DNA of 64,000 bases from a virus. Taxonomy: Duplodnaviria > Caudoviricetes. The notes beneath the pieces were generated by a model. The model worked only from the letters and a program-made list of their open reading frames with translations, was not told the DNA's origin and did no database searches. Made by a program: the position numbers and the translations under genes. Numbering within the stretch: the first letter of the stretch is position 1; each line of letters opens with the position of its first letter. Of the stretch, positions 432 through 26,463 are shown piece by piece. The stretch lies in the IMG/VR virus record IMGVR_UViG_3300017778_007984, positions 4,594 to 68,593 of that record, one strand, 5' to 3'.

Positions 432-1064
432 TTAAATCGTAAATTTTTTACATTCTTCTAACGTCAAAATAAATTTTAAATTTGGGATTGTTTTTTTCAA
501 AATTTCAATTTTTTTTATTTGATTTTGATATGCCGCTGGATTTTTTGGGTCCAAGTATAAGTCATAGTCCTTCAGATAAAAATCTGGAAAATAATTGTGT
601 TCAACATTATTTTTGTCTAACCATTTTATTGGTTCTGGTCTAGTCCATTTAATATTTAATTCGTCTAACCTAATTGCTAGAGCTAACTCCCAACTACTAT
701 CTAATAGATACCCTTGATATTCCACAACCCCTTTTCTTAAACGTCGATGATTCGAACTTAACGCTGCTTGTCTCAATTTTTTTTTACTCTCGTCCGTGTG
801 TTTTTTAAAAGGATTTGGATGTTTTTTTCCTTTTAAAGAATGACTTATAGATTCATTATTCAATTTAGCCTTAGTAAATTGATTTGTTGCACCTTTTTTT
901 TGTCGCGCTTTATTCATTAGCTCTACTGAGTTTCTTTTATTCAATTCTGCCAAATATTCTTGTTTTTTTGGATTTAAATCACACCATCTTGTATGATTTG
1001 CAATAAAATTTGTTGGCTTATCGCTAGTATCAAAAATTTGGTCACACCATTTACATTTTTTCAT
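432..1064 (-). CDS. Putative free-standing homing endonuclease (N-terminal CxxC, NUMOD3-like DNA-binding motif, C-terminal PD-(D/E)xK nuclease), 210 aa
   Basis: Start reassigned to MKKCKWCDQ at 1064 because the ORF-track extension runs through tRNA-Arg. Motifs SHSLKGKKHPNPFKKHTDESKKKL and HNYFPDFYLKDYDLYLDPK. Located between two tRNA genes. Confidence 0.65.
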   Translation of the reverse strand: MKKCKWCDQIFDTSDKPTNFIANHTRWCDLNPKKQEYLAELNKRNSVELMNKARQKKGATNQFTKAKLNNESISHSLKGKKHPNPFKKHTDESKKKLRQAALSSNHRRLRKGVVEYQGYLLDSSWELALAIRLDELNIKWTRPEPIKWLDKNNVEHNYFPDFYLKDYDLYLDPKNPAAYQNQIKKIEILKKTIPNLKFILTLEECKKFTI

Positions 1065-1130
1065 ATCGTAAGGTTTATATGAATAAATATAAGCGGATAG
1101 AGCAAAGGTTTTCCCTTCCAGAAAAATTAG

Positions 1131-1202
1131 TAGGCCCACCTGGATTCGAACCAGGAATATCTCATTAGAAGTGAGAGGGTATATCCCTTTACCTATGGGC
1201 CC
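1131..1202 (-). tRNA. tRNA-Arg (anticodon TCT); CCA not encoded
   Basis: Acceptor GGGCCCA/TGGGCCT, anticodon stem-loop TCTCA-CTTCTAA-TGAGA, T arm CCTGG-TTCGAAT-CCAGG. Confidence 0.93.
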
Positions 1203-1230
1203 ATTTTGTCCTACAAATATGAGAAAAAAA

Positions 1231-1632
1231 TTACTTGTCGTCAACAGGATGCAAAACATCAAACAGAAACTGACAATAATATTTTCTACAAATCTGTGGT
1301 CGGATATCATAGATAGAGCAAGAACGCAATGTGGAATTGTAAAATATACAGGGTTTACGTTTTTTTTCCATATCGACCTTCAATGCTGGAAATGAATTAG
1401 GGCTTTGCCAGCAACTTCTTTCGGGAAATAGTTTTGAACCTTCTTCAAATGTATAAAACACTTCTTCAAATTTTACTTTTCTACTAAATCTATCAGACAA
1501 TCTTTCAAGGAAATCTTCCTGGTCAGTGTGAGGTCCAATTATGTAATCCCTATCTTCTAGGTGACAACAACTACCATCGTGGTCTTTTCGGCCATAACAA
1601 TTATGACTACAAATATTTGCGTGTTTACTCAT
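1231..1632 (-). CDS. YkgJ-like cysteine-cluster (putative Fe-S/Zn) protein
   Basis: CSHNC...GSCC N-terminal cluster and PCIFY...CSIYDIRPQICRKYYC C-terminal cluster. Confidence 0.7.
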   Translation of the reverse strand: MSKHANICSHNCYGRKDHDGSCCHLEDRDYIIGPHTDQEDFLERLSDRFSRKVKFEEVFYTFEEGSKLFPERSCWQSPNSFPALKVDMEKKRKPCIFYNSTLRSCSIYDIRPQICRKYYCQFLFDVLHPVDDK

Positions 1633-1985: not shown

Positions 1986-2020
1986 AAACAAATGAAAGGG
2001 TCCAATTAAGGACCCTTTCA
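1986..2020 (-). terminator. Terminator hairpin downstream of tmRNA
   Basis: Perfect 11-bp stem TGAAAGGGTCC/GGACCCTTTCA followed by TTTGTTT on the minus strand. Confidence 0.7.
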
Positions 2021-2052
2021 AAATTGTCCAAGGGTGGAGATGGCGGGAATCG

Positions 2053-2275
2053 CAATTGTCACAATTTTTCAATTATGCGTGGACTATATCATCATCTTCT
2101 TCAAGATGTCGGACGCTATTGTGGTATTACGGTAGAAGCGTCTACCACCCACTAGTCTCTGCACCTTCCTGTTCCTACCAGGCTTGGCTCAGGATTGACA
2201 TATCCCTAAGGACTTAGTTTTCCCTGAATTCATCCAATTTTTAATTCAACATCACTGTTGAATGGGTCCGATTTG
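2053..2275 (-). mobile_element. ORF-less group I self-splicing intron, 223 nt, in the tmRNA T-loop
   Basis: P1 exon GGGUU pairs with GACCC with U.G at the splice site; P10 AAUCG pairs with 3' exon CGAUU; P2 8-bp stem with GUGA loop; P3 UUGGAUG/CGUCCGA; P4 UCAGG/CCUGA; P7 GACUA/UAGUC; P8 CAUCUU/AAGAUG; P9 with GAAA loop; terminal G; AAUCCUGAGCC and GUGCAGAGACU core motifs. Confidence 0.93.
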
Positions 2276-2506
2276 AACCCGCGTCTTGCTCAGTTTACCC
2301 ATAAAGGACTACATGCTTAGGACAGGGTTTGTCACACCCTCCGAAATATCTGATTCCTATTTTGCCATCGTCATCAGAAACTGTGGGGTGTTCACTTAAT
2401 CGGTAGAACACCAAACGTTACCTCCATTTCTTTTAAAGATAGAAACCACACCATAAGGACTTCTGTTTCAAGGTATATGTCCCCACCGACCCACGGTTAT
2501 TATAGC

Positions 2507-2572
2507 CTAAGCTACAGTAACTGCTTCAGTTGTAAGAAGACCTACAGCCTGAAGCTTTGCAAAAGTGTTGCC
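2507..2572 (-). other. tmRNA tag reading frame encoding (A)GNTFAKLQAVGLLTTEAVTVA*
   Basis: Resume codon GGC follows TTTAAGT; 21 sense codons to TAG. Resume position inferred by analogy to bacterial tmRNAs. Confidence 0.75.
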
Positions 2573-2684
2573 ACTTAAAAAGCGCTCCCATAGATTAAAG
2601 TGATAGGAAACATCTCACTGCATGCCCCGTATGATTAACTCTGCCAATCAATACCGTTCATCCCCATTATTTCAAAGAACTCTA

Positions 2685-2715
2685 CAAATATAAGTATTTA
2701 TATTGATATGGCAAA
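2685..2715 (-). promoter_or_regulatory. Bacteroidota-type housekeeping promoter (-33 TTTG / -7 TAnnTTTG) for tmRNA
   Basis: Minus strand TTTG (2715-2712), 19-nt spacer, TATATTTG (2692-2685), 20 nt upstream of the tmRNA 5' end. Confidence 0.7.
2695..2701 (+). promoter_or_regulatory. Representative copy of a recurrent TATTTAT motif upstream of genes (putative late promoter)
   Basis: The same motif lies on the sense strand shortly before 16 start codons in the window (listed in findings). Confidence 0.6.
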
Positions 2716-4126
2716 AGGTAAAAATTTATTTTTTTCAGAAAAAGGATATCCTCTAAATGTTGTTAGGTATTCAAATGCTGAGTTATTTTGTGAAGATGCG
2801 CAGGATACAGTATGGTGTCGTGAAGATTTTTTCAATGAGTTTGTTGCTCCATTATTGAAATTTAATGAGGTTTATATTTTGAATTACACCGTTAGTGGGG
2901 ATAAAATGACAAAAATACTAATTGTCCGCTCAACAAATTTTGTAAGAAGGTTTGACGCTAGTGGTATCACACAAACCACCAGTATCCCTACATCCATTCC
3001 TGTTTCAGTTGAGGAGTTATTGGCTAAAAGACCCGATAATCTCACACATAAAATTAAACTATTCATAACTGGTGTTGTTGGTTCGGAAATTTTTGATAAT
3101 ATACTTCACTTTTCAAAATTAATTTACCGTGAGCCTTTGGGTGAATCTATTTTGGTTTTTGATTACGAAGACAATAAAGATATAATTTATGATATGTTCA
3201 GTTACGATGAGGATGATATGAATACTATTGAATGTGCGTTAGAAGATGAAGACCTCGAATGCGAATTGGAAAATGTGGAATATTATATTGATGAAACATT
3301 TTTGGAAGGATATAGCATTTTACCAAATTTTTTTTTAGTTGGAACACAAGCAAAAGAATTGGCAAATAAAATATATCTGGATGTACAGCCTGATTTTCAT
3401 TATGATGATGAAGCGGAGGGTAAAAAAGTAAATAAAATTTTGTACAGTATTGCGCCGGAAGGTATTGAGAATTTTTATAATGCTTGGGTTTATTATTATG
3501 ATAGGAGTAGTTTTGAGGCTATTGCTAGAGGAATTAAGAAGGAGTTAACACAAATAAAAGAGGATACCGGATTTGTGTTGGACCCAGTTAATTTTACCGT
3601 TTCAACCACTTTAGGAAATCTATATTATTACTTATTTTTCAAGAACTTAACCCATCTGCCAATTGAAACTGCTTTATTAAAATTAAGTGATAATTATAAA
3701 TCTGTCAAAAATTTTGGTGGATGGAACGATGCTAAGTATGACCTTGCAACTGACAAGTTTCTTGACAATAATGGGCTCGAGCAAAGAACCCTCCCCATTC
3801 TCAAGGATATTGAGAATAAAATTAATGTAGGGAATATAGATATAATCCGAGATATATTTTTAAAATATGACCTTAGGATAAGTCTTTATAAGAACAACAA
3901 ACACCCCAAGACAGGTAAACCCTTTTGGTTTAAAGATTTGGATGCAAAAGAAGGGATTGTTAAATTATCGGATATGAGTTCTAGTTATAGTAAGACTTGG
4001 GAGATGACCCTCGAAGAATTTATTGATTGGCTCGAAAGTGATGATGCTGTTTTGGAAAGTAAAAATATTTTGTTATCTTTACAGCAAATACTCAAAGATG
4101 ACTCAAGAAAAAATCGACTTACTTAA
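2708..4126 (+). CDS. Hypothetical protein, 472 aa
   Basis: Long open frame preceded by TATTTAT; no motif recognised. Confidence 0.8.
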   Translation: MAKGKNLFFSEKGYPLNVVRYSNAELFCEDAQDTVWCREDFFNEFVAPLLKFNEVYILNYTVSGDKMTKILIVRSTNFVRRFDASGITQTTSIPTSIPVSVEELLAKRPDNLTHKIKLFITGVVGSEIFDNILHFSKLIYREPLGESILVFDYEDNKDIIYDMFSYDEDDMNTIECALEDEDLECELENVEYYIDETFLEGYSILPNFFLVGTQAKELANKIYLDVQPDFHYDDEAEGKKVNKILYSIAPEGIENFYNAWVYYYDRSSFEAIARGIKKELTQIKEDTGFVLDPVNFTVSTTLGNLYYYLFFKNLTHLPIETALLKLSDNYKSVKNFGGWNDAKYDLATDKFLDNNGLEQRTLPILKDIENKINVGNIDIIRDIFLKYDLRISLYKNNKHPKTGKPFWFKDLDAKEGIVKLSDMSSSYSKTWEMTLEEFIDWLESDDAVLESKNILLSLQQILKDDSRKNRLT

Positions 4127-4928
4127 AAAAGTTCTATCCGTACCAACAGCAACTCACCGAGAAGGTATATTGGTTGAATATATTTGCGAATGGCTAAAAG
4201 AAAACAAAATCGAATATTTTATCGATGACATGTTAAACATCTATGCCACAAAGCAAAGTGATGAAAATGTTGAATATTTTCCTTGCGTTATTGCCCATAC
4301 TGACACTGTTCATGGACTAAACGAAATCAACATACAGGAAGAGATGTTAAAAAATGCTCAGGAAGAGGTTAAACTTGCCCTTAAAGCGTATAACGACCAC
4401 GGAATGCCCACTGGTATTGGTGGTGATGATAAAGCCGGTGTATTCGCCTGTATGCAAGTCTTGATGGATTTGCCAAATGTGAAAGCGGCATTTTTTGTTG
4501 CTGAAGAAACTGGTTGCCACGGTTCAAACAAAGCAGATAAAGATTTCTTTTCTAATGTTGGATATGGCATTCAATTCGACGCTCCTGAAAACTGGATGGT
4601 TACCGAACACTGCTGGGGTCAGCGGCTATTTGACAGAGAGTCAGAATTTTTCGAAACTTGCAATAACATCCTCACAGAAGGAATTGGTGAGAGTCTTGAA
4701 TATTTGGTTCACCCTTACACGGACGTTTATTCCCTTCGTGGTAAATTCGATTTTTCCTGTATCAATATTTCAATTGGATATTACGACTACCATACAAAAG
4801 ATGAATATGTTGTAATCGAAGATGTATTTAACGGAATCGAAATGGGAAAAAAAATGATTGTAACTTTAGGAAATCGACTCCACTATCTACAACACGGAAA
4901 AAAATTTACTACTAACTGGTTATATTAA
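4098..4928 (+). CDS. M20/M28-clan Zn-dependent peptidase
   Basis: Metal-ligand motifs AHTDTV, GIGGDDKAG, AEETG, QFDA, YHT; start reassigned to MTQEKID (4098). Confidence 0.8.
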   Translation: MTQEKIDLLKKVLSVPTATHREGILVEYICEWLKENKIEYFIDDMLNIYATKQSDENVEYFPCVIAHTDTVHGLNEINIQEEMLKNAQEEVKLALKAYNDHGMPTGIGGDDKAGVFACMQVLMDLPNVKAAFFVAEETGCHGSNKADKDFFSNVGYGIQFDAPENWMVTEHCWGQRLFDRESEFFETCNNILTEGIGESLEYLVHPYTDVYSLRGKFDFSCINISIGYYDYHTKDEYVVIEDVFNGIEMGKKMIVTLGNRLHYLQHGKKFTTNWLY

Positions 4929-6586: not shown

Positions 6587-8587
6587 TTAAGAAATTTTCA
6601 CCTGCTCATCGACAATCTTAATGGTATATTTGCGATTTTCTTTGAGTTTACCAATTAGGATTAGCTCAGCGAGGAAGTCCTCAATTTTATCCTGGATAGC
6701 TCGCTTAACTGGACGGGCACCGTATACTGGGTCAAATCCAACTTTTGCGATATACTCTGTAATGGTGGAGTCCATTACAATTTTATATTTCATTTCACCG
6801 ATGCGTTTTGCAAGTTTTTCTAGTTCTAGACCAACGATTTTTTCGATGTTCTCTTTGGTGAGGGTCTCAAAAACGATGGTGTCGTCGATGCGGTTGATAA
6901 ATTCGGGGGAGAAGAAGTTCTTCATCTCTTTCATCAGGATTTGCTTCTTTGCCTCCTCGTTGGAGTACTTATTCGATGAGAAACCAATACCGGCGCCAAA
7001 GTCCTGCAGTTTCTTAACACCAAGGTTGGTGGTCATGATAATCAACGTATTTTTAAAGTTAATCTTGCGTCCCAGGGAATCCGTTGCGTGACCGTCGTCG
7101 AGAATTTGAAGCAGGATGGAGAAGATATCCTTGTGTGCTTTTTCTACCTCATCGAAAAGAATAACCGCATAGGGTTTGTTTTTAACCTGTTCGGTGAGCT
7201 GTCCACCTTCTTCATAACCCACGTATCCCGGAGGCGCGCCCACCAATCTAGAAACAGAGTGTTTTTCTTGATATTCACTCATGTCGACACGAATAAGGGC
7301 GCCTTCAGAGCCAAACATTTCCTTAGCAATTTGTTTTGCCAGGTGGGTCTTTCCAACACCCGTTGAGCCAAGAAAGATAAATGAGCCGATTGGACGATTT
7401 GGGTCTTTGATACCAATACGGTTTCTACGGATTGACTTAACAATCTTTGATACTGCTTCATCCTGACCGATAACATTGCTCATAAGAACCTTGTCCATGT
7501 TTATAAGGGCATTTTTATCGTCGATTGACATTTTGCTAACAGGGATTTTTGTCATGTTTGACACAACATCATATACTTGCTCCACGGAGATGGGAATTCG
7601 AGTGGTGGAGGATGCTTCTTCAAACTTTTTCTTTTCGGAATCGAGTTTCGTTAAAATCTTACGTTCCTTATCGCGAAGCGCTGCGGCTTCTTCATAGTTT
7701 TGTTTTTTAACTACATCCATTTTTTGAATGCGGATTTCTGCGGCTTTTCCCTTGAGTTCCTCAATTATTTCGGGTATTTTTTGTTCGGTTTGACTTCTAG
7801 CTCCCACCTCATCGAGAATGTCAAATGCTTTATCTGGAAACTCCCGGTCGGTGATATAACGGTCAGCAAGCTTTACGCACAGCTCAATGATTTCATCCGA
7901 ATACGATACCTTGTGAAATGCCTCATAACGGTCGCGTACATTGGTAAGAATTTCGATTGTCTCATCAATTGTCGATGGCTCTACGATAACTTTTTGAAAA
8001 CGACGCTCCAAGGCTCCGTCTTTTTCAAATGACTTGCGATATTCATCAAGGGTGGTAGCACCGATACATTGGATTTCTCCACGAGAAAGTGCAGGTTTAA
8101 AGATATTGGAACCATCCAGACTACCCGATGAGTTACCCGAGCCAATTAAGGTGTGGATTTCATCGATAAAGATGATGATATTGGGGTTTTGAGAAAGCTC
8201 CTCAAGAATAACCTTTAAACGTTCTTCAAACTGACCTCGGTATTTGGTACCGGCGACAACAGCCGTTAGGTCAAGGGTAACGATGCGCTTGTCAAGGAGG
8301 TTTTTGGGACAGCTTCCATTTACAATTAACATAGCAAGGCCCTCCACGATTGCAGTTTTGCCGCAACCTGGTTCACCCAATATAATCGGATTGTTTTTCT
8401 TTCTGCGAGAAAGAATCTGTGCGATGCGCACGATTTCTTTTGCCCGACCAATAACGGGGTCAAGCTTCCCTTGCTCGGCAAGTTTATTGAGGTCTCTGGA
8501 AAAATTATCTAGAACAGGTGTTCTAGAATCGGAAGAGGGTTTCTTCCTGCCAAGTGCCTTATCGTCGTCGTCCATTGTTTCGCTCAT
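6587..8587 (-). CDS. clpC: ClpC/ClpA-family Hsp100 AAA+ unfoldase lacking the N-terminal Clp-repeat domain
   Basis: TPVLDNFSRDL, LDPVIGR, Walker A GEPGCGKT and GSTGVGKT, Walker B IFIDEIH and LFDEVEK, UVR-type middle domain (KQNYEEAAALRD), ClpP-docking IGF loop. Probable start MSETMDD at 8587 (ORF track 8611). Confidence 0.92.
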   Translation of the reverse strand: MSETMDDDDKALGRKKPSSDSRTPVLDNFSRDLNKLAEQGKLDPVIGRAKEIVRIAQILSRRKKNNPIILGEPGCGKTAIVEGLAMLIVNGSCPKNLLDKRIVTLDLTAVVAGTKYRGQFEERLKVILEELSQNPNIIIFIDEIHTLIGSGNSSGSLDGSNIFKPALSRGEIQCIGATTLDEYRKSFEKDGALERRFQKVIVEPSTIDETIEILTNVRDRYEAFHKVSYSDEIIELCVKLADRYITDREFPDKAFDILDEVGARSQTEQKIPEIIEELKGKAAEIRIQKMDVVKKQNYEEAAALRDKERKILTKLDSEKKKFEEASSTTRIPISVEQVYDVVSNMTKIPVSKMSIDDKNALINMDKVLMSNVIGQDEAVSKIVKSIRRNRIGIKDPNRPIGSFIFLGSTGVGKTHLAKQIAKEMFGSEGALIRVDMSEYQEKHSVSRLVGAPPGYVGYEEGGQLTEQVKNKPYAVILFDEVEKAHKDIFSILLQILDDGHATDSLGRKINFKNTLIIMTTNLGVKKLQDFGAGIGFSSNKYSNEEAKKQILMKEMKNFFSPEFINRIDDTIVFETLTKENIEKIVGLELEKLAKRIGEMKYKIVMDSTITEYIAKVGFDPVYGARPVKRAIQDKIEDFLAELILIGKLKENRKYTIKIVDEQVKIS

Positions 8588-8666
8588 GTTTTTATAATTT
8601 GATTTAAGCAAAGGTTAGTCAAAAAATGGACATTTCCAAATCCTTGGCATAAAAAAAATTAAAAAG

Positions 8667-16863: not shown

Positions 16864-18624
16864 ATGACAAAAGAACAAGTAATAATAGAGTATAAAAAGT
16901 GCATGAAAAGCACTCCTTATGCTTTAAAAACATATTTACAAACATATGACAATACCGTATCTAGGTATGTCCCTCTAGAACTTTTTCAAGACCAAGTTCA
17001 ATTGGTTGAAGATTACGAAGAGTATAATGAAAATATTGCTTTAAAGTATCGTCAGGCTGGAGTTTCTACTGTGACTGCTGCATGGGCCAGTAAAAGGTTG
17101 GCTTTTGCTAGAAAGGAAAAACCAGAAAAAGTTTTGATTATTGCCAACAAGCTTGATACTTCAGTTGAGTTTGCTAATAAAATTAGAAGTTTTACTGAAC
17201 AATGGCCTGCATGGGTAGGGATTGGTTTTTCTCCCGAAAAAAATTCTGCACGACATTTTAAACTATCTAACGGTTGCGAGGTAAAAGCTGTTGCAACTTC
17301 CAAAGACGCACTTAGAGGGTACACACCCACCACCCTTATTTTTGACGAAGCAGCTTTTATTGAGGCCGATAGCGATTTTTGGGCAGCTTGTATGGCATCA
17401 CTTTCTACTGGGGGTAAAGTAATTGTTATTTCAACACCAAACGGTTATGACGCAATTTATTACGAAATTTACGACCAGGCTTTACGTAATATGAACGATT
17501 TCAAAATAACTGAGATGTATTGGTATAGAGACCCTCGTTATACGAAAGATTTATACATGGTTAAAACTAATGATATAGTTCATTATTTTCTCAATAAAGA
17601 AGAATATCCCAAAGATGCAATTATAGATTTATCTGCAGAAAATAGAAAAGAAAGACAATTAATTACTCTACACAAATTTATTGAGGACGGCTACAAACCT
17701 TGTTCATCATGGTTTGAAAGTATGGTAAAAAAGTTAAAGTATGAGCGAAGAAAAGTAGCTCAGGAATTAGAGTGTAATTTCTTGGGCTCTGGTGATAACG
17801 TTTTTGACGCACAAATACTCCAGAAAATTGTTAAAAATGATGTTAAAGAACCTGAAGCAAAATTAGTTGCTGGCCAACTTTGGATTTGGAAAGAACCAGA
17901 AAATGGACACAAATATGTTATGGGTGTTGATGTTTCACGGGGAGACTCCGAGGATTTTTCATGTATAGAAATTATTGATTTTGACAGTAAGGAACAAGTA
18001 TTAGAATTTGTTGGTAAATTACCCCCTGACACATTAGCTGAAATTGCTTATAAATGGGGTATTATGTATAGTGCTTTATGTGTTACTGACCTCACGGGTG
18101 GTATGGGTGTAGCGACCTCTAGAAAACTGCAGGAATTAGGATACGAAAATTTCTACTATGATGGTGTTGATATGAGTAACAAGTGGAAATACGACCCAAA
18201 AATTAAAGAAAAAATTCCTGGAATTAATTTTAACAACAAAAGAGTTCAAATTATTGCGTCTCTTGAGGAGGCTATTCGCCATGATTTTAAAATCAGGTCA
18301 AATCGATTAATTAACGAAATGGGTACCTTTGTGTATATCCATGGAAGACCTGACCACCAGAGGGGTCACCATGATGATTGTATAATGGCAATTTCAATAG
18401 CTCTGTATGTTGCTGAAGCAGCTTTTCCTTCTTTGGTTAAAGTAGTAAATCATACAAAAGCCATGCTTAACTCATGGAGTACGGTAATTAATGAAAATAA
18501 AGAAAAATCAGAATTTTTCAATCCATCGGTCCCTCAATTTTCTCAACCAGGAATGTATAACCAAAAAAATTACTCGGCGTCAAGGGCTGACTATGAAAAA
18601 TATGGTTGGTTATTTGGTAGGTAA
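16864..18624 (+). CDS. terL: Terminase large subunit (T4 gp17-like)
   Basis: ALKYRQAGVST (Walker A), LIFDEAAF (Walker B), VISTPNG (motif III), YVMGVDVSRG and HHDDCIMA nuclease motifs. Confidence 0.95.
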   Translation: MTKEQVIIEYKKCMKSTPYALKTYLQTYDNTVSRYVPLELFQDQVQLVEDYEEYNENIALKYRQAGVSTVTAAWASKRLAFARKEKPEKVLIIANKLDTSVEFANKIRSFTEQWPAWVGIGFSPEKNSARHFKLSNGCEVKAVATSKDALRGYTPTTLIFDEAAFIEADSDFWAACMASLSTGGKVIVISTPNGYDAIYYEIYDQALRNMNDFKITEMYWYRDPRYTKDLYMVKTNDIVHYFLNKEEYPKDAIIDLSAENRKERQLITLHKFIEDGYKPCSSWFESMVKKLKYERRKVAQELECNFLGSGDNVFDAQILQKIVKNDVKEPEAKLVAGQLWIWKEPENGHKYVMGVDVSRGDSEDFSCIEIIDFDSKEQVLEFVGKLPPDTLAEIAYKWGIMYSALCVTDLTGGMGVATSRKLQELGYENFYYDGVDMSNKWKYDPKIKEKIPGINFNNKRVQIIASLEEAIRHDFKIRSNRLINEMGTFVYIHGRPDHQRGHHDDCIMAISIALYVAEAAFPSLVKVVNHTKAMLNSWSTVINENKEKSEFFNPSVPQFSQPGMYNQKNYSASRADYEKYGWLFGR

Positions 18625-18664: not shown

Positions 18665-20533
18665 ATGGAAAATAGAAATTTTACGGTTTGGCAAAGATTA
18701 AGTAGGGCTTTGGGTCCTGATGCTTTGATGAATCAAGATTTTCCTGTTTACAAATTGGATAAGAAAGAACTTCTTAGAACAACTGATAAGGCAGAATATG
18801 AAAGAGAAAAACTTCAAGCCAAACAATCATTTTATTTAGCCAATCAATTTGCTAAGGTTGAAAATAACCTTTACACCCAAGCAATCTATTATGAGCCAAA
18901 CAGATTAGCGTCCTACTACGATTACGAATCTATGGAGTACACTCCGGAAATTTCTGCTGCGTTGGACATTTATGCTGAGGAATCTACCACACCTAATGAG
19001 GATGGTTTAATTCTTCAGGTTTATTCAGAGTCAAAAAGGATTAAGTCTGTATTGACTGATTTATTCAATAACTCGCTAGATATTAATACCAACCTTGCAA
19101 TGTGGACAAGAAACACCTGTAAATATGGTGACAATTTTGTTTACATTAGATTGGACCCTGAAAAAGGTGTCATAGGTTGCCAGCAATTACCTAATATAGA
19201 AGTTGAAAGATTTGAACAAGGATTAGCCACAAGAAATGCATCAGTTGGTGTTTCTCAAAATACCGAGGACAAAGGTTTAAAGTTCACCTGGAAAGCACAA
19301 GCCATGGAATTTCAGCCATGGGAGATTGCCCACTTTAGACTTTTAGGCGATGATAGAAAACTTCCTTATGGCACCTCAATGCTTGAGAAATCAAGAAGAA
19401 TTTGGAAACAACTTCTTTTGTCGGAGGATGCGATGTTGATTTATCGTACTTCACGTGCTCCGGAGAGAAGAATATTCAAAGTTTTTGTTGGCAATATGGC
19501 CGACGAAGACGTCGAAGCTTATGTACAACGTGTTGCCAATAAGTTCAAAAGAGAACAAATTGTTGATGCTAAAAGTGGTAATGTTGATATGCGTTTTAAT
19601 CAAATGGCTGTTGACCAAGATTACTTCATTCCGGTACGTGACCCAGCACAACCAAGTCCTATTGACACGCTTCCTGGAGCAACAAACCTATCAGAGATTG
19701 CGGATATTGAATACATCCAGAAAAAACTTGTAACAGCTCTTCGTATTCCAAAAGCATTTCTTGGATTTGAAGAAGTTGTTGGTGATGGTAAAAGCCTTGC
19801 CTTGCAAGATATTCGTTTTGCCCGTACTATCAATAGAATTCAAAAATCCATGATTCAGGAGCTTAACAAGATTGCTATTGTTCACTTGTTTTTGCTTGGA
19901 TTTGAAGAAGAGATTTCTAACTTTACTCTCGGTCTTACTAACCCATCAACTCAAGCTGATTTGCTTAAAGTTGACATTTGGAAAGAAAAAGTATTGCTTT
20001 ATCGTGATTTGGTTTCAGACCCAGGAAATGGTATTCAACCGTCATCATCAACATGGGCTAAAAAACATATTTTCAATTGGTCTGATGACGATATTAGAAC
20101 TGACCTTCTACAGCAAAGAATGGAAAGAGCAATTGGAGAGGAGCTCAAAAACACCCCAGCAACTATTTCCAAAACAGGAATTTTCGACCAGCTCGATGCT
20201 TTATATGGTAACAAGCCAGGTGAAGGTGGTGCACCAACAGCTCCTCCTGGCGAAGTTAGTGAACCAGCAGCAGCTTCATTTGGTGGTGGATTTCAAGATT
20301 TAGGGGGTGCTTTAGGTGGCGAAGACTTCGGTGGAGCATCTGACACTGGTGGAGCGCCAGAAACCCCAGCAGCTGGAGAAGAAGCTGAAATTACTCCAGA
20401 ATCTATTATTGATAAGGATATGAATTTGTTGATTGAAACTAACTTATATGGTAGCAAATATTTAAATTTGGGTATTGCACAACAAAGTTTAGGTAAAATT
20501 GAAGAAGAATTAGACAAGTTGTTAAATTCCTAA
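18665..20533 (+). CDS. Portal protein (T4 gp20-like)
   Basis: YESMEYTPEISAALDIYAEE, LIYRTSRAPERRIFKVFVGNM, EDYF-like DQDYFIP, TLPGATNL...DIEYIQKKL..ALRIP; follows terminase. Confidence 0.93.
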   Translation: MENRNFTVWQRLSRALGPDALMNQDFPVYKLDKKELLRTTDKAEYEREKLQAKQSFYLANQFAKVENNLYTQAIYYEPNRLASYYDYESMEYTPEISAALDIYAEESTTPNEDGLILQVYSESKRIKSVLTDLFNNSLDINTNLAMWTRNTCKYGDNFVYIRLDPEKGVIGCQQLPNIEVERFEQGLATRNASVGVSQNTEDKGLKFTWKAQAMEFQPWEIAHFRLLGDDRKLPYGTSMLEKSRRIWKQLLLSEDAMLIYRTSRAPERRIFKVFVGNMADEDVEAYVQRVANKFKREQIVDAKSGNVDMRFNQMAVDQDYFIPVRDPAQPSPIDTLPGATNLSEIADIEYIQKKLVTALRIPKAFLGFEEVVGDGKSLALQDIRFARTINRIQKSMIQELNKIAIVHLFLLGFEEEISNFTLGLTNPSTQADLLKVDIWKEKVLLYRDLVSDPGNGIQPSSSTWAKKHIFNWSDDDIRTDLLQQRMERAIGEELKNTPATISKTGIFDQLDALYGNKPGEGGAPTAPPGEVSEPAAASFGGGFQDLGGALGGEDFGGASDTGGAPETPAAGEEAEITPESIIDKDMNLLIETNLYGSKYLNLGIAQQSLGKIEEELDKLLNS

Positions 20534-24627: not shown

Positions 24628-26463
24628 ATGGGAGCATTATTAGAAAGTGGTCTAGTTGGTAATATCGGTCTTAAGCACCTTAAAGTTATCAAAGAAGACA
24701 CAATTAACAAATGGGACAAGTTAGGTTTCCTTGACGGGCTTAACGGACACCTAAAAGAAAATATCGCGCAGTTGTATGAAAACCAAGCGTCATATTTGAT
24801 TAACGAAGCAGCTTCAACTGCAGATACCGGTTCATTCGAAACTGTTGTATTCCCAATTGTACGAAGAGTATTCTCTAAGCTTTTGGCTAACGACATCGTT
24901 TCAGTACAAGCAATGAATCTTCCTATCGGTAAGTTGTTCTACTTTGTACCAAACATTCAGTCTTATCAATCAGGAAATTTAAATCAGCACTTTGCACCTT
25001 TTGGGGCACCCAATGCAAATGCGGACCAAACTCCAAGTTCTGGTTACGACTATAACACACAAAAAGACCTTTACGATAGATTCTACGAAGGTAATGAACC
25101 CGCTTTAGACCCTCCAGGTCTTTACGACTACTCTAAAGGTTCATTTTCTGCTTTAACTCCAGGTTTTACTACTAGTTCAGACGGTGTTAACCCAATCGCT
25201 GGTGGTGTTAAAACTGTAGTTTGGGTTGCTGACCAATTAACGGTTTCTGGTTATGGTCTTAGTAACTACAGAAAAGTTCTAATTGAATTGAATGGCTTTG
25301 CATCTGCTGGTGCTGGTCAATTGATTGGTCCAAACGGTCAACCAATGGATACTGAAGAATTCTTAACTGACCTTCAAGTTCGTGGTGCTTCTGGAAACAC
25401 AACAACTTCAGCTAACATAGCTAACAATTACTTGTTCAGAGTTGTAACTCAAAAATACGGTAAGGGTATTGTACAATATGGTGAAAATGAAACTTTAGCT
25501 TTTCCTCAAAGTAGGACTGGTGGCGGTGGATACTACGATACTTGTACTGCAGATGGTAAAATTTACCTTGAAGTTGATTTACAAGTTCCTGTATGTATTT
25601 CTTGTGGAGATTCTTCACTTGATGGATATACGGGCTCAACATTCTCTTCTTCAACCGCTAACAACAACGCATTCTTGGCAACTTATAGAATCTATAAGAG
25701 TCTTGAATTTGAAGATAAAATTGGTGAAGTTTCATTTGACCTTCAGTCTGTGACTGTTTCGGTTACTGAAAGAAAACTTAGAGCTCAATGGTCTCCAGAA
25801 ATGGCGCAAGACGTTGCAGCATTCCACAACATTGACGCTGAAGCTGAATTGACAGCTTTGTTGTCTGAGCAAGTGGCTGCTGAAATCGACCGCGAAATCT
25901 TAAGGGACTTGAGAAAAGCTGCATCTTGGAACCTTCGTTGGGACTACAACGGATGGAAGAGATTTAACGCTGGTACAACTCCTTACACTCAGAAGGACTG
26001 GAACCAAACTCTTATCACTGCAATCAACCAAATTTCAGCTCAAATCCACAAGTCTACTCTTAGAGGAGGCGCAAACTGGATTGTTGTATCTTCTGAGGTT
26101 TCTGCAATCTTTGATGACTTGGAGTACTTCCACGTATCAAACGCAGCTCCTGAGCAAGACCAATATAACATGGGTATTGAGAGAGTTGGAACATTAGCTG
26201 GTAGATACCAGGTTTACCGTGACCCTTACTTCCCTGCAAACCAGGTGTTGTTAGGACACAAAGGTACTTCATTATTGGATACCGGATACATCTACGCTCC
26301 ATATGTACCTTTACAACTCACTCCAACAATGTACAACCCATTCAACTTTACACCTATCAAGGGTATCATGACCAGATACGCTAAGAAAGTTGTAAATAAC
26401 AGGTTCTATGGTAGAATTACAGTTGATGGTGTTAGAACATTCGACTTGAGAGAATTGAGATAA
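24628..26463 (+). CDS. Major capsid protein (T4 gp23 family)
   Basis: IVSVQAMNLPIGKLFY, RKLRAQWSPEMAQD..AFHNIDAEAEL..LLSEQVAAEIDREIL, GYIYAPYVPL, FTPIKGIMTRY. Confidence 0.96.
   Translation: MGALLESGLVGNIGLKHLKVIKEDTINKWDKLGFLDGLNGHLKENIAQLYENQASYLINEAASTADTGSFETVVFPIVRRVFSKLLANDIVSVQAMNLPIGKLFYFVPNIQSYQSGNLNQHFAPFGAPNANADQTPSSGYDYNTQKDLYDRFYEGNEPALDPPGLYDYSKGSFSALTPGFTTSSDGVNPIAGGVKTVVWVADQLTVSGYGLSNYRKVLIELNGFASAGAGQLIGPNGQPMDTEEFLTDLQVRGASGNTTTSANIANNYLFRVVTQKYGKGIVQYGENETLAFPQSRTGGGGYYDTCTADGKIYLEVDLQVPVCISCGDSSLDGYTGSTFSSSTANNNAFLATYRIYKSLEFEDKIGEVSFDLQSVTVSVTERKLRAQWSPEMAQDVAAFHNIDAEAELTALLSEQVAAEIDREILRDLRKAASWNLRWDYNGWKRFNAGTTPYTQKDWNQTLITAINQISAQIHKSTLRGGANWIVVSSEVSAIFDDLEYFHVSNAAPEQDQYNMGIERVGTLAGRYQVYRDPYFPANQVLLGHKGTSLLDTGYIYAPYVPLQLTPTMYNPFNFTPIKGIMTRYAKKVVNNRFYGRITVDGVRTFDLRELR

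Follow-up and report, generated by a model that had tools for sequence, protein, structure and literature searches.

How can a phage obtain a working tmRNA from a gene whose T-loop is interrupted in the DNA, and is the interruption of any use to it? This question is raised by a 64,000-nt stretch of DNA (hereafter the window), which comprises bases 4594-68593 of the IMG/VR virus record IMGVR_UViG_3300017778_007984. The record is 68.6 kb long, is rated 22% complete by CheckV and derives from an uncultured freshwater (lake) phage. An initial annotation, made from the letters of the window, had proposed that a phage tmRNA is split here in its T-loop by a complete, ORF-less group I intron. The analysis described below makes it very probable that a large freshwater phage here has a tmRNA gene that looks functional, forms its own promoter-to-terminator unit and carries a mobile IA-like intron.

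Results

A tmRNA gene hidden from standard finders

The gene lies on the minus strand, from 2665 to 2033, with a length of 633 nt including the intron; the coordinates given in the initial annotation are right throughout. Its parts are the following (window positions).

2276..2665, minus strand: tmRNA exon 1, 390 nt, ending in ...GACGCGGGTT (ARAGORN on the spliced sequence)
2053..2275, minus strand: group I intron, 223 nt, starting with CAAATCGGACCC and ending in ...CAATTG (RF00028)
2033..2052, minus strand: tmRNA exon 2, 20 nt, CGATTCCCGCCATCTCCACC (compensatory changes relative to sister alleles)
2507..2572, minus strand: tag reading frame within exon 1, 21 codons and stop, GNTFAKLQAVGLLTTEAVTVA followed by the stop (ARAGORN on the spliced sequence)

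In the unspliced window ARAGORN finds no tmRNA; once exactly 2053-2275 is removed it calls a tmRNA of 410 nt. Likewise, the tmRNA model RF00023 yields no match in the unspliced window even at E 10. It matches five of five scanned intron-less sister alleles over the full length as opposed to none of five intron-bearing ones, the window included, and intron-less alleles that are 82-86% identical to the window score 69-89 bits (threshold 47). The ARAGORN call on the spliced sequence and the RF00023 matches of the sister alleles thus confirm the proposed tmRNA identity, and the expectation that standard tools would overlook the gene was correct, both ARAGORN and RF00023 being blind to the genomic form. 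A spliced form that scores no better on the tmRNA model than the unspliced one had been named as evidence against the proposal; the difference between the two groups of alleles is the opposite of that. The identity of the gene and its boundaries can be regarded as practically certain.

Exon 1, which shares 82-96% identity with the sister alleles, contains the 5' acceptor strand GGGGAUG, the tag frame, a pseudoknot-rich body, the 5' strand of the T-stem and T-loop nucleotides 1-2, and exon 2 supplies the remaining five nucleotides of the T-loop and the 3' strands of both the T-stem and the acceptor stem (CAUCUCC), followed by the discriminator A and CC. As read from the sequence, the acceptor stem comprises 7 bp (GGGGAUG/CAUCUCC) with a G3.U wobble and is followed by the discriminator A; the CCA end is partly encoded (A-C-C then C). 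Removal of the intron restores the canonical T arm that had been predicted, GCGGG-UUCGAUU-CCCGC, with a loop of 7 nt. Across the 12 full-length alleles compensatory double changes are found at 10 predicted tmRNA pairs, among them acceptor pair 5-407 (A5-U in the window, G5-C elsewhere) and T-stem pairs 389-403 and 392-400. The tag frame begins at GGC, and its frame, its length and its ...ExVTVA-stop ending are kept in all 12 alleles, even with many synonymous codon changes and with both TAG and TAA as stops. The compensatory pairs together with the synonymously conserved tag frame indicate that the tmRNA is under selection for structure and for coding.

The tag itself is long (21 amino acids) and atypical, with the consensus G[END]TF[AE][KT]L[EQ]A[VL]GL[LI]xxE[AEG]VTVA and stop. 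It ends in VTVA, where ...LAA is usual, which suggests that the standard ClpXP/SspB route may not be the one that reads it; ARAGORN gives 'tag not identified' for it. ARAGORN (version 1.2.41) detects two of 12 tmRNAs with the intron removed or absent (window, L003-L009, L021, L025-L027).

Two further elements flank the gene.

2687..2714, minus strand: promoter-like site, TTGCCA, 16 nt, TATATT (10 of 12 consensus matches; assigned by consensus match alone)
1993..2020, minus strand: intrinsic-terminator-like hairpin followed by a T run (11-bp stem, 6 G-C pairs)

The terminator-like hairpin lies 13 nt past the tmRNA 3' end and is the sole such site in 1900-2800. The promoter-like site overlaps a TAnnTTTG motif at 2692..2685 (minus strand), and an upstream motif TTAT(A/C)TTTGTAG is kept in eight of the 12 alleles. 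In eight of the 12 alleles, the window (2685-2692) included, TA(TA/TC)TTTG is found about 20 nt 5' of the mature end, and in nearly all 12 GTTCTTTGAA(A/T)(A)TA(A)T comes directly before it, with one allele reading GTTCTTTGAAAATAAT. We take these motifs to resemble the TAnnTTTG -7 box of Bacteroidota promoters.

The insert is a group I intron without an endonuclease gene

A search with the group I intron model, which had been suggested as a check, leaves little doubt about the nature of the insert: RF00028 (Intron_gpI) matches 2286..2060 on the minus strand along its full length (model positions 1-253 of 253) with 88.6 bits, as compared to a gathering score of 50, and with an E value of 2.8e-21 for the 64-kb window, far beyond chance. 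The sister introns reach 67-77 bits. The longest ORF on the intron's strand has 26 amino acids, and the intron is therefore without a homing endonuclease gene. The description of the insert as a complete, ORF-less group I intron in the T-loop with these boundaries consequently stands.

The structural elements that had been listed can all be read from the sequence. P1 is formed by GGGUU at the end of exon 1 and the guide GACCC (2268..2264), with a U.G wobble at the nucleotide before the splice site, P10 pairs AAUCG (intron nucleotides 3-7, 2273..2269) with CGAUU of exon 2 in a perfect 5-bp helix, and the intron ends with a terminal G at 2053. P2 is a hairpin of 6-7 bp, P3-P8 are all there, the P3/P7 pseudoknot among them, and P9 has a stem of 7 bp that is capped by a GAAA loop. 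In addition, a two-tier hairpin of 32 nt, paired throughout (alignment columns 135-166), separates P7 from the 3' strand of P3. This is the place where introns of subgroup IA have P7.1/P7.2, and the extra hairpin suggests an IA-like intron.

In an alignment of six intron alleles the hand-drawn helices P1, P3-P8, P7.1 and P10 consist of standard pairs to 98.1%, as compared to 35-46% in a control in which the partners were slid by 1-3 columns. The sole non-standard pair drawn in the core (P3-P8) is found in P8 of L026, and in P10 22 of 24 cells are paired, four of the five columns being counted. There is one double change in the intron fold, from U-A to C-G in P8, along with several wobble-compatible single changes. 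Since the catalytic core barely varies, covariation offers weak evidence and the fold is supported mainly by the model score. The insertion point lies after T-loop nucleotide 2, that is, between loop nucleotides 2 and 3; that 'after loop nucleotide 2' equals subsite 3 of the published nomenclature is based on the Figure 2 legend of PMC11915505.

Empty, subsite-2 and subsite-3 alleles in one phage tmRNA lineage

Relatives of the locus were retrieved by a conserved 31-35-mer of exon 1, which gave nine viral and 11 metagenome contigs, three of the latter duplicating viral ones. The 18 exon-pattern alleles are evenly divided, with nine carrying the intron (the window included) and nine lacking it (L003, L005, L007, L008, L009, L020, L021, L027 and L028). 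A survey for intron-less alleles had been proposed, and the nine found read GG(G/A)TTC(G/A)A(T/A)(T/A)..., the very sequence predicted for the ligated exons, and thereby define both intron boundaries. L028 is without the intron, yet shares 97% identity with the window in the 3' flank and 93% in the exon; its T-loop is the variant UUCAAAU.

The closest full-length relatives of the window are L004 and L010, with exons 95-96% identical and a support of 100/100. Their intron is 194 nt long and has a P3-P7' core nearly identical to that of the window intron, and it differs from the latter in P1, P2, the P5 extension and the 3' end. In these two alleles a U.G at position -1 together with a terminal G is obtained only if the intron is placed after loop nucleotide 1 (GGGU^U...GUG^UCGAAU, subsite 2), whereas in the window the same combination requires placement after loop nucleotide 2. 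Accordingly, the P1 wobble falls in columns 10-19 in both subsite-3 alleles and in columns 9-20 in the four subsite-2 alleles of the alignment, the shift being brought about by a GA/AG swap in the guide sequence. A single phage tmRNA lineage is thus found in the empty, the subsite-2 and the subsite-3 state. The subsite-2 introns are 94-97% identical to one another, and therefore more alike than their exons (84-91%), and lie in unrelated flanks, which fits horizontal spread. The intron state is scattered on the exon tree, a poorly resolved tree whose starred branches require no more than 1-2 state changes. A scan with the intron core returned 15 viral contigs, in all of which (15 of 15) the core is located in a tmRNA T-loop, and added at least eight contigs with the subsite-3 type of the window.

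One viral contig is of mixed type. In the last ~330 bases of L031 (IMGVR_UViG_3300044695_007133, minus strand) the intron has the 5' half of a subsite-2 intron (P1, P2, short P5) and the 3' half of a subsite-3 intron (P8, P9, end), and the canonical choice of splice sites would leave a T-loop of 6 nt. L031 arose either by natural recombination or by chimeric assembly across the identical core, and it indicates that assemblies can be chimeric in this region.

Bacterial genomes were searched with a pattern made of the T-arm context and P3/P4. Five of the six matches were chance matches inside coding sequence and one was real (L015, about 1340-1640; JAKSUE010000180.1, a contig of 3.6 kb from a MAG of horse faeces that is labelled archaeon). 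It has a tmRNA-like 3' end, AAGCATGTAAG...GACGCGGGTT, and its T-loop intron, at subsite 3, belongs to the same general family and scores below the Rfam gathering threshold; its acceptor 3' strand AUAGUCC would give no G3.U pair. The contig may be of phage origin or mis-binned.

Genomic setting

The following features of the window bear on the origin of the locus and on its neighbourhood.

3-76: tRNA-Gly
432-1310, minus strand: NUMOD3-bearing endonuclease-like ORF
1130-1202: tRNA-Arg
4023-4928, plus strand, and 6587-8611, minus strand: the two ORFs for a Clp/Hsp100-type ATPase and an M20-peptidase-like protein
16864-18624: large terminase
18665-20533: portal protein
24628-26463: major head protein

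The proposed phage origin is borne out by the large terminase, portal and major head protein genes of the window and by its source in an IMG/VR virus record. Two tRNA genes adjoin the tmRNA locus. Sister contigs reach 172 kb and contain tRNA arrays, and from the 57% completeness of the 172-kb contig and the 22% completeness of the source record we estimate a genome of roughly 300 kb for the source phage. Might the junction of intron and tmRNA, or the assignment to a phage, then be a product of assembly or binning, and the contig in truth be bacterial? The window does come from an uncultured metagenomic record of low completeness, and L031 looks chimeric across the identical intron core. However, the subsite-3 layout is seen again on at least nine further, independent contigs (L024, L030, L032, L033, L035-L039), phage hallmark genes lie on the same contig 15-25 kb from the tmRNA, and the long sister contigs have tRNA arrays as well, so that the chance of such an artefact is close to negligible.

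Less than 6 kb from the tmRNA the window encodes a Clp/Hsp100-type ATPase with two AAA domains (AAA_2, AAA_lid_9, ClpB_D2-small, UVR motif), and a weak M20-peptidase-like ORF is found within the same distance. This suggests a phage-encoded protein-quality-control neighbourhood. The NUMOD3 ORF likely has its true start downstream of the tRNA and fills the spacer between tRNA-Arg and tRNA-Gly. As this spacer differs in length between loci and the body of the ORF is present in no other locus examined, the ORF is an insertion of a free-standing mobile endonuclease that is specific to the window.

RNA data

Parts of the stretch are contained in 24 metatranscriptome runs from freshwater, river and lake samples. 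Contigs from RNA libraries of four runs, belonging to four studies, cover 2292-2652 of exon 1 with 99-100% identity, although such libraries may contain DNA, and two contigs from two studies stop at 2292 without a loose end. Over the examined region 1950-2750 no contig of the four runs crosses the GGGTT^CGATT junction, and the intron, exon 2 and the flanks are uncovered. As absent contig cover proves nothing, the four-run result neither shows nor refutes splicing.

Discussion

Is the gene alive? An intron that no longer splices, or a tmRNA that is a decaying captured host gene, would make the locus a pseudogene, and some of our observations could be read in this way: there is no junction RNA among the contigs of the four runs, the tag is atypical, ARAGORN misses most alleles even where the intron is absent, and no SmpB gene was found in six related phage records, all of them fragments (13-57% complete). 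However, the intron core is complete and high-scoring, and both intron types retain U.G at -1, the terminal G and P10 in spite of their different P1 and 3' ends. Nor would decay readily explain the 10 compensatory tmRNA pairs or a tag frame that stays open with synonymous changes in 12 alleles, and contigs with exon 1 were recovered from RNA libraries of four studies. We therefore consider a dead gene extremely unlikely. Since SmpB was not found in the fragmentary phage records, the tmRNA would have to use SmpB of the host; it presumably acts in trans-translation.

How would the mature RNA be made? After transcription of the precursor the intron would fold and P1 would pair the exon end GGGUU with the guide GACCC, presenting the U.G wobble at the cleavage site. 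Free guanosine would then cut after this U, the last nucleotide of exon 1, P10 (AAUCG with CGAUU) would position exon 2, and the 3'-OH of exon 1 would attack just past the terminal G, so that the exons are ligated and the T arm is rebuilt. The window intron is predicted to be self-splicing, and we think it highly probable that it splices in vivo. Because end processing, charging with alanine and binding of SmpB and EF-Tu all need a tRNA-like domain, which only the ligated RNA has, splicing would be obligatory in the window allele.

But does an obligatory splicing step also regulate the tmRNA? The initial annotation had combined two functional proposals, that splicing is required to make the RNA and that it could time trans-translation during infection. 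The first holds on anatomical grounds; the second does not fit the alleles, half of which, including L028, lack the intron. Splicing could in principle be rate-limiting or condition-dependent, as the T arm exists only after splicing and group I splicing depends on guanosine and Mg2+. Then again, in the exon-pattern sample nine alleles have the intron and nine do without it, L028 lacks it in a 97%-identical background, and close relatives use two different subsites. Frequent intron-less alleles and two subsites are the signature of a dispensable mobile element rather than of a regulator, and a timing device is accordingly very unlikely. Most likely the intron is a selfish passenger that moves between co-infecting relatives, and we regard a passenger rather than a regulator as the probable reading. 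It might spread by recombination in cells infected by two relatives, with the invariant exon sequence on its flanks as the shared stretch, or with the help of an endonuclease acting in trans.

The second of these routes leads to another role that an intron may have, namely to protect its carrier by disrupting, as T-loop variants might also do, the target of a free-standing homing endonuclease that cuts the DNA of the tmRNA T arm; it would then be retained for the immunity it gives and would spread by collaborative homing. The intron has no endonuclease gene of its own and yet is clearly mobile, the NUMOD3-bearing ORF lies about 1 kb away and is itself an insertion (the distance from tRNA-Arg to tRNA-Gly is 1053 nt here and 362 nt in L004), and intron-less L028 has a variant T-loop. 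However, the body of the endonuclease is without a homologue in the flanks of the other loci, and no co-occurrence of intron and endonuclease is seen in this small sample: in L004/L010 and L028 the match is confined to the first ~60 codons, a part that overlaps tRNA-Arg and the adjacent ORF, and none is found in L024, L025 and L026. The nearby NUMOD3 protein is thus not supported as the agent, and protection seems unlikely as the explanation of the intron; the selfish passenger is the reading that we prefer.

The finding has to be seen against a rich bacterial background. A recent catalogue lists 883 unique intron-form tmRNAs in 21 phyla, all interrupted in the T-psi-C loop at subsites 2, 3, 7 or 8, and an endonuclease gene is absent in 847 of them (96%) (PMC11915505). 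Subsite 3 is confined to the class Bacteroidia (nine instances) and subsite 2 to Anaerolineae and one member of the Myxococcota, and the four subsites were read as separate founding invasions (PMC11915505). The first intron-form tmRNA was that of Clostridium botulinum (reference 11 of PMC11915505); the initial annotation named this case rightly and overrated the novelty of the window gene, the 883 catalogued cases including subsite 3 (PMC11915505). As in the bacterial genes, the window intron sits in the T-psi-C loop, has a U at -1 that pairs with a G in P1, ends in a terminal G and leaves a rebuilt loop (PMC11915505). It differs from the catalogue, whose table lists bacterial and archaeal phyla only, in that its carrier is a phage, and it is shorter (223 nt, as compared to a mean of 293 nt); moreover, unlike the separate invasions proposed there, the phage introns at subsites 2 and 3 share a nearly identical core (PMC11915505). 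Our pattern search of bacterial genomes with the T-arm context and P3/P4 did not retrieve the Bacteroidia subsite-3 introns of the catalogue. The motifs upstream of the phage genes would fit a Bacteroidota host, in line with the catalogued hosts of subsite-3 introns. Full-text literature searches returned no paper on an intron-form tmRNA in a phage; T-loop introns in tmRNA are hence well known in bacteria and their location in a phage seems to be unpublished.

Phage tmRNAs as such are not new. They have been found in huge phages with ARAGORN or Rfam, which are blind to intron forms (PMC7162821; megaphages, PMC8172020), and like these the window gene has tRNA genes as neighbours and belongs to a genome that measures several hundred kb. 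Different from them, it is invisible to both tools, and the huge-phage surveys mention no intron (PMC7162821, PMC8172020). A blastn search of GenBank phages revealed no tmRNA body similar to that of the window among cultured phages and matched the intron core alone, with ~74% identity over ~180 nt. These relatives of the core are located in the large-terminase gene of Vibrio phage R16F, in a tRNA cluster of Klebsiella jumbo phages and in psbA of Synechococcus phage S-CBWM1. Phage introns of the IA type with an extra hairpin between P7 and P3' are familiar from td, nrdB and nrdD of T4. The window intron has the same order of core helices but, unlike these introns, resides in a stable-RNA gene, in a T-loop, and is without an endonuclease ORF.

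It also resembles the introns of bacterial tRNA genes in being of the self-splicing type, in interrupting a loop of a tRNA-like domain and in being mapped through the regularity of the exons (bioRxiv 10.1101/2020.01.27.920355). Those introns are found in the anticodon loop, whereas the window intron lies in the T-loop of a tmRNA, which has no anticodon loop. A phage counterpart of the tRNA introns was noticed in Klebsiella phage Muenster (L011, ~1146-1456; MT708547.1, ~302826-303136), in which an unannotated tRNA(CAU) has its anticodon loop split by a group I intron with an RF00028 score of 104 bits and ~74% identity to the window intron core. This split tRNA is located between the annotated tRNA-Ser and tRNA-Asn genes, and a gene for an HNH endonuclease follows just downstream.

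Conclusions

Our understanding of how tmRNA or group I introns work is not changed by this locus. It does bear on how tmRNAs are counted: with ARAGORN and Rfam missing the window gene, and ARAGORN missing 10 of 12 alleles, surveys of translation genes in large phages undercount tmRNAs. We further put forward, as a tentative and rather doubtful proposal, that a single intron lineage circulates in the tmRNA genes of freshwater jumbo phages and has been shifted between T-loop subsites 2 and 3 by a two-nucleotide swap in the guide (GA to AG) and a new 3' end, its core being left nearly unchanged. If this were true, the four subsites of bacterial tmRNAs need not be separate founding invasions, and phages could have seeded the rare subsite-3 introns of Bacteroidia, or some of the MAG entries may be mis-binned phage contigs. 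What the finding adds is that the empty, the subsite-2 and the subsite-3 state occur in nature as alleles whose backgrounds are nearly identical, with subsites one nucleotide apart and a shared core, and this series would offer a convenient system for studying the spread of an endonuclease-less group I intron and the shift of a splice site by one nucleotide.
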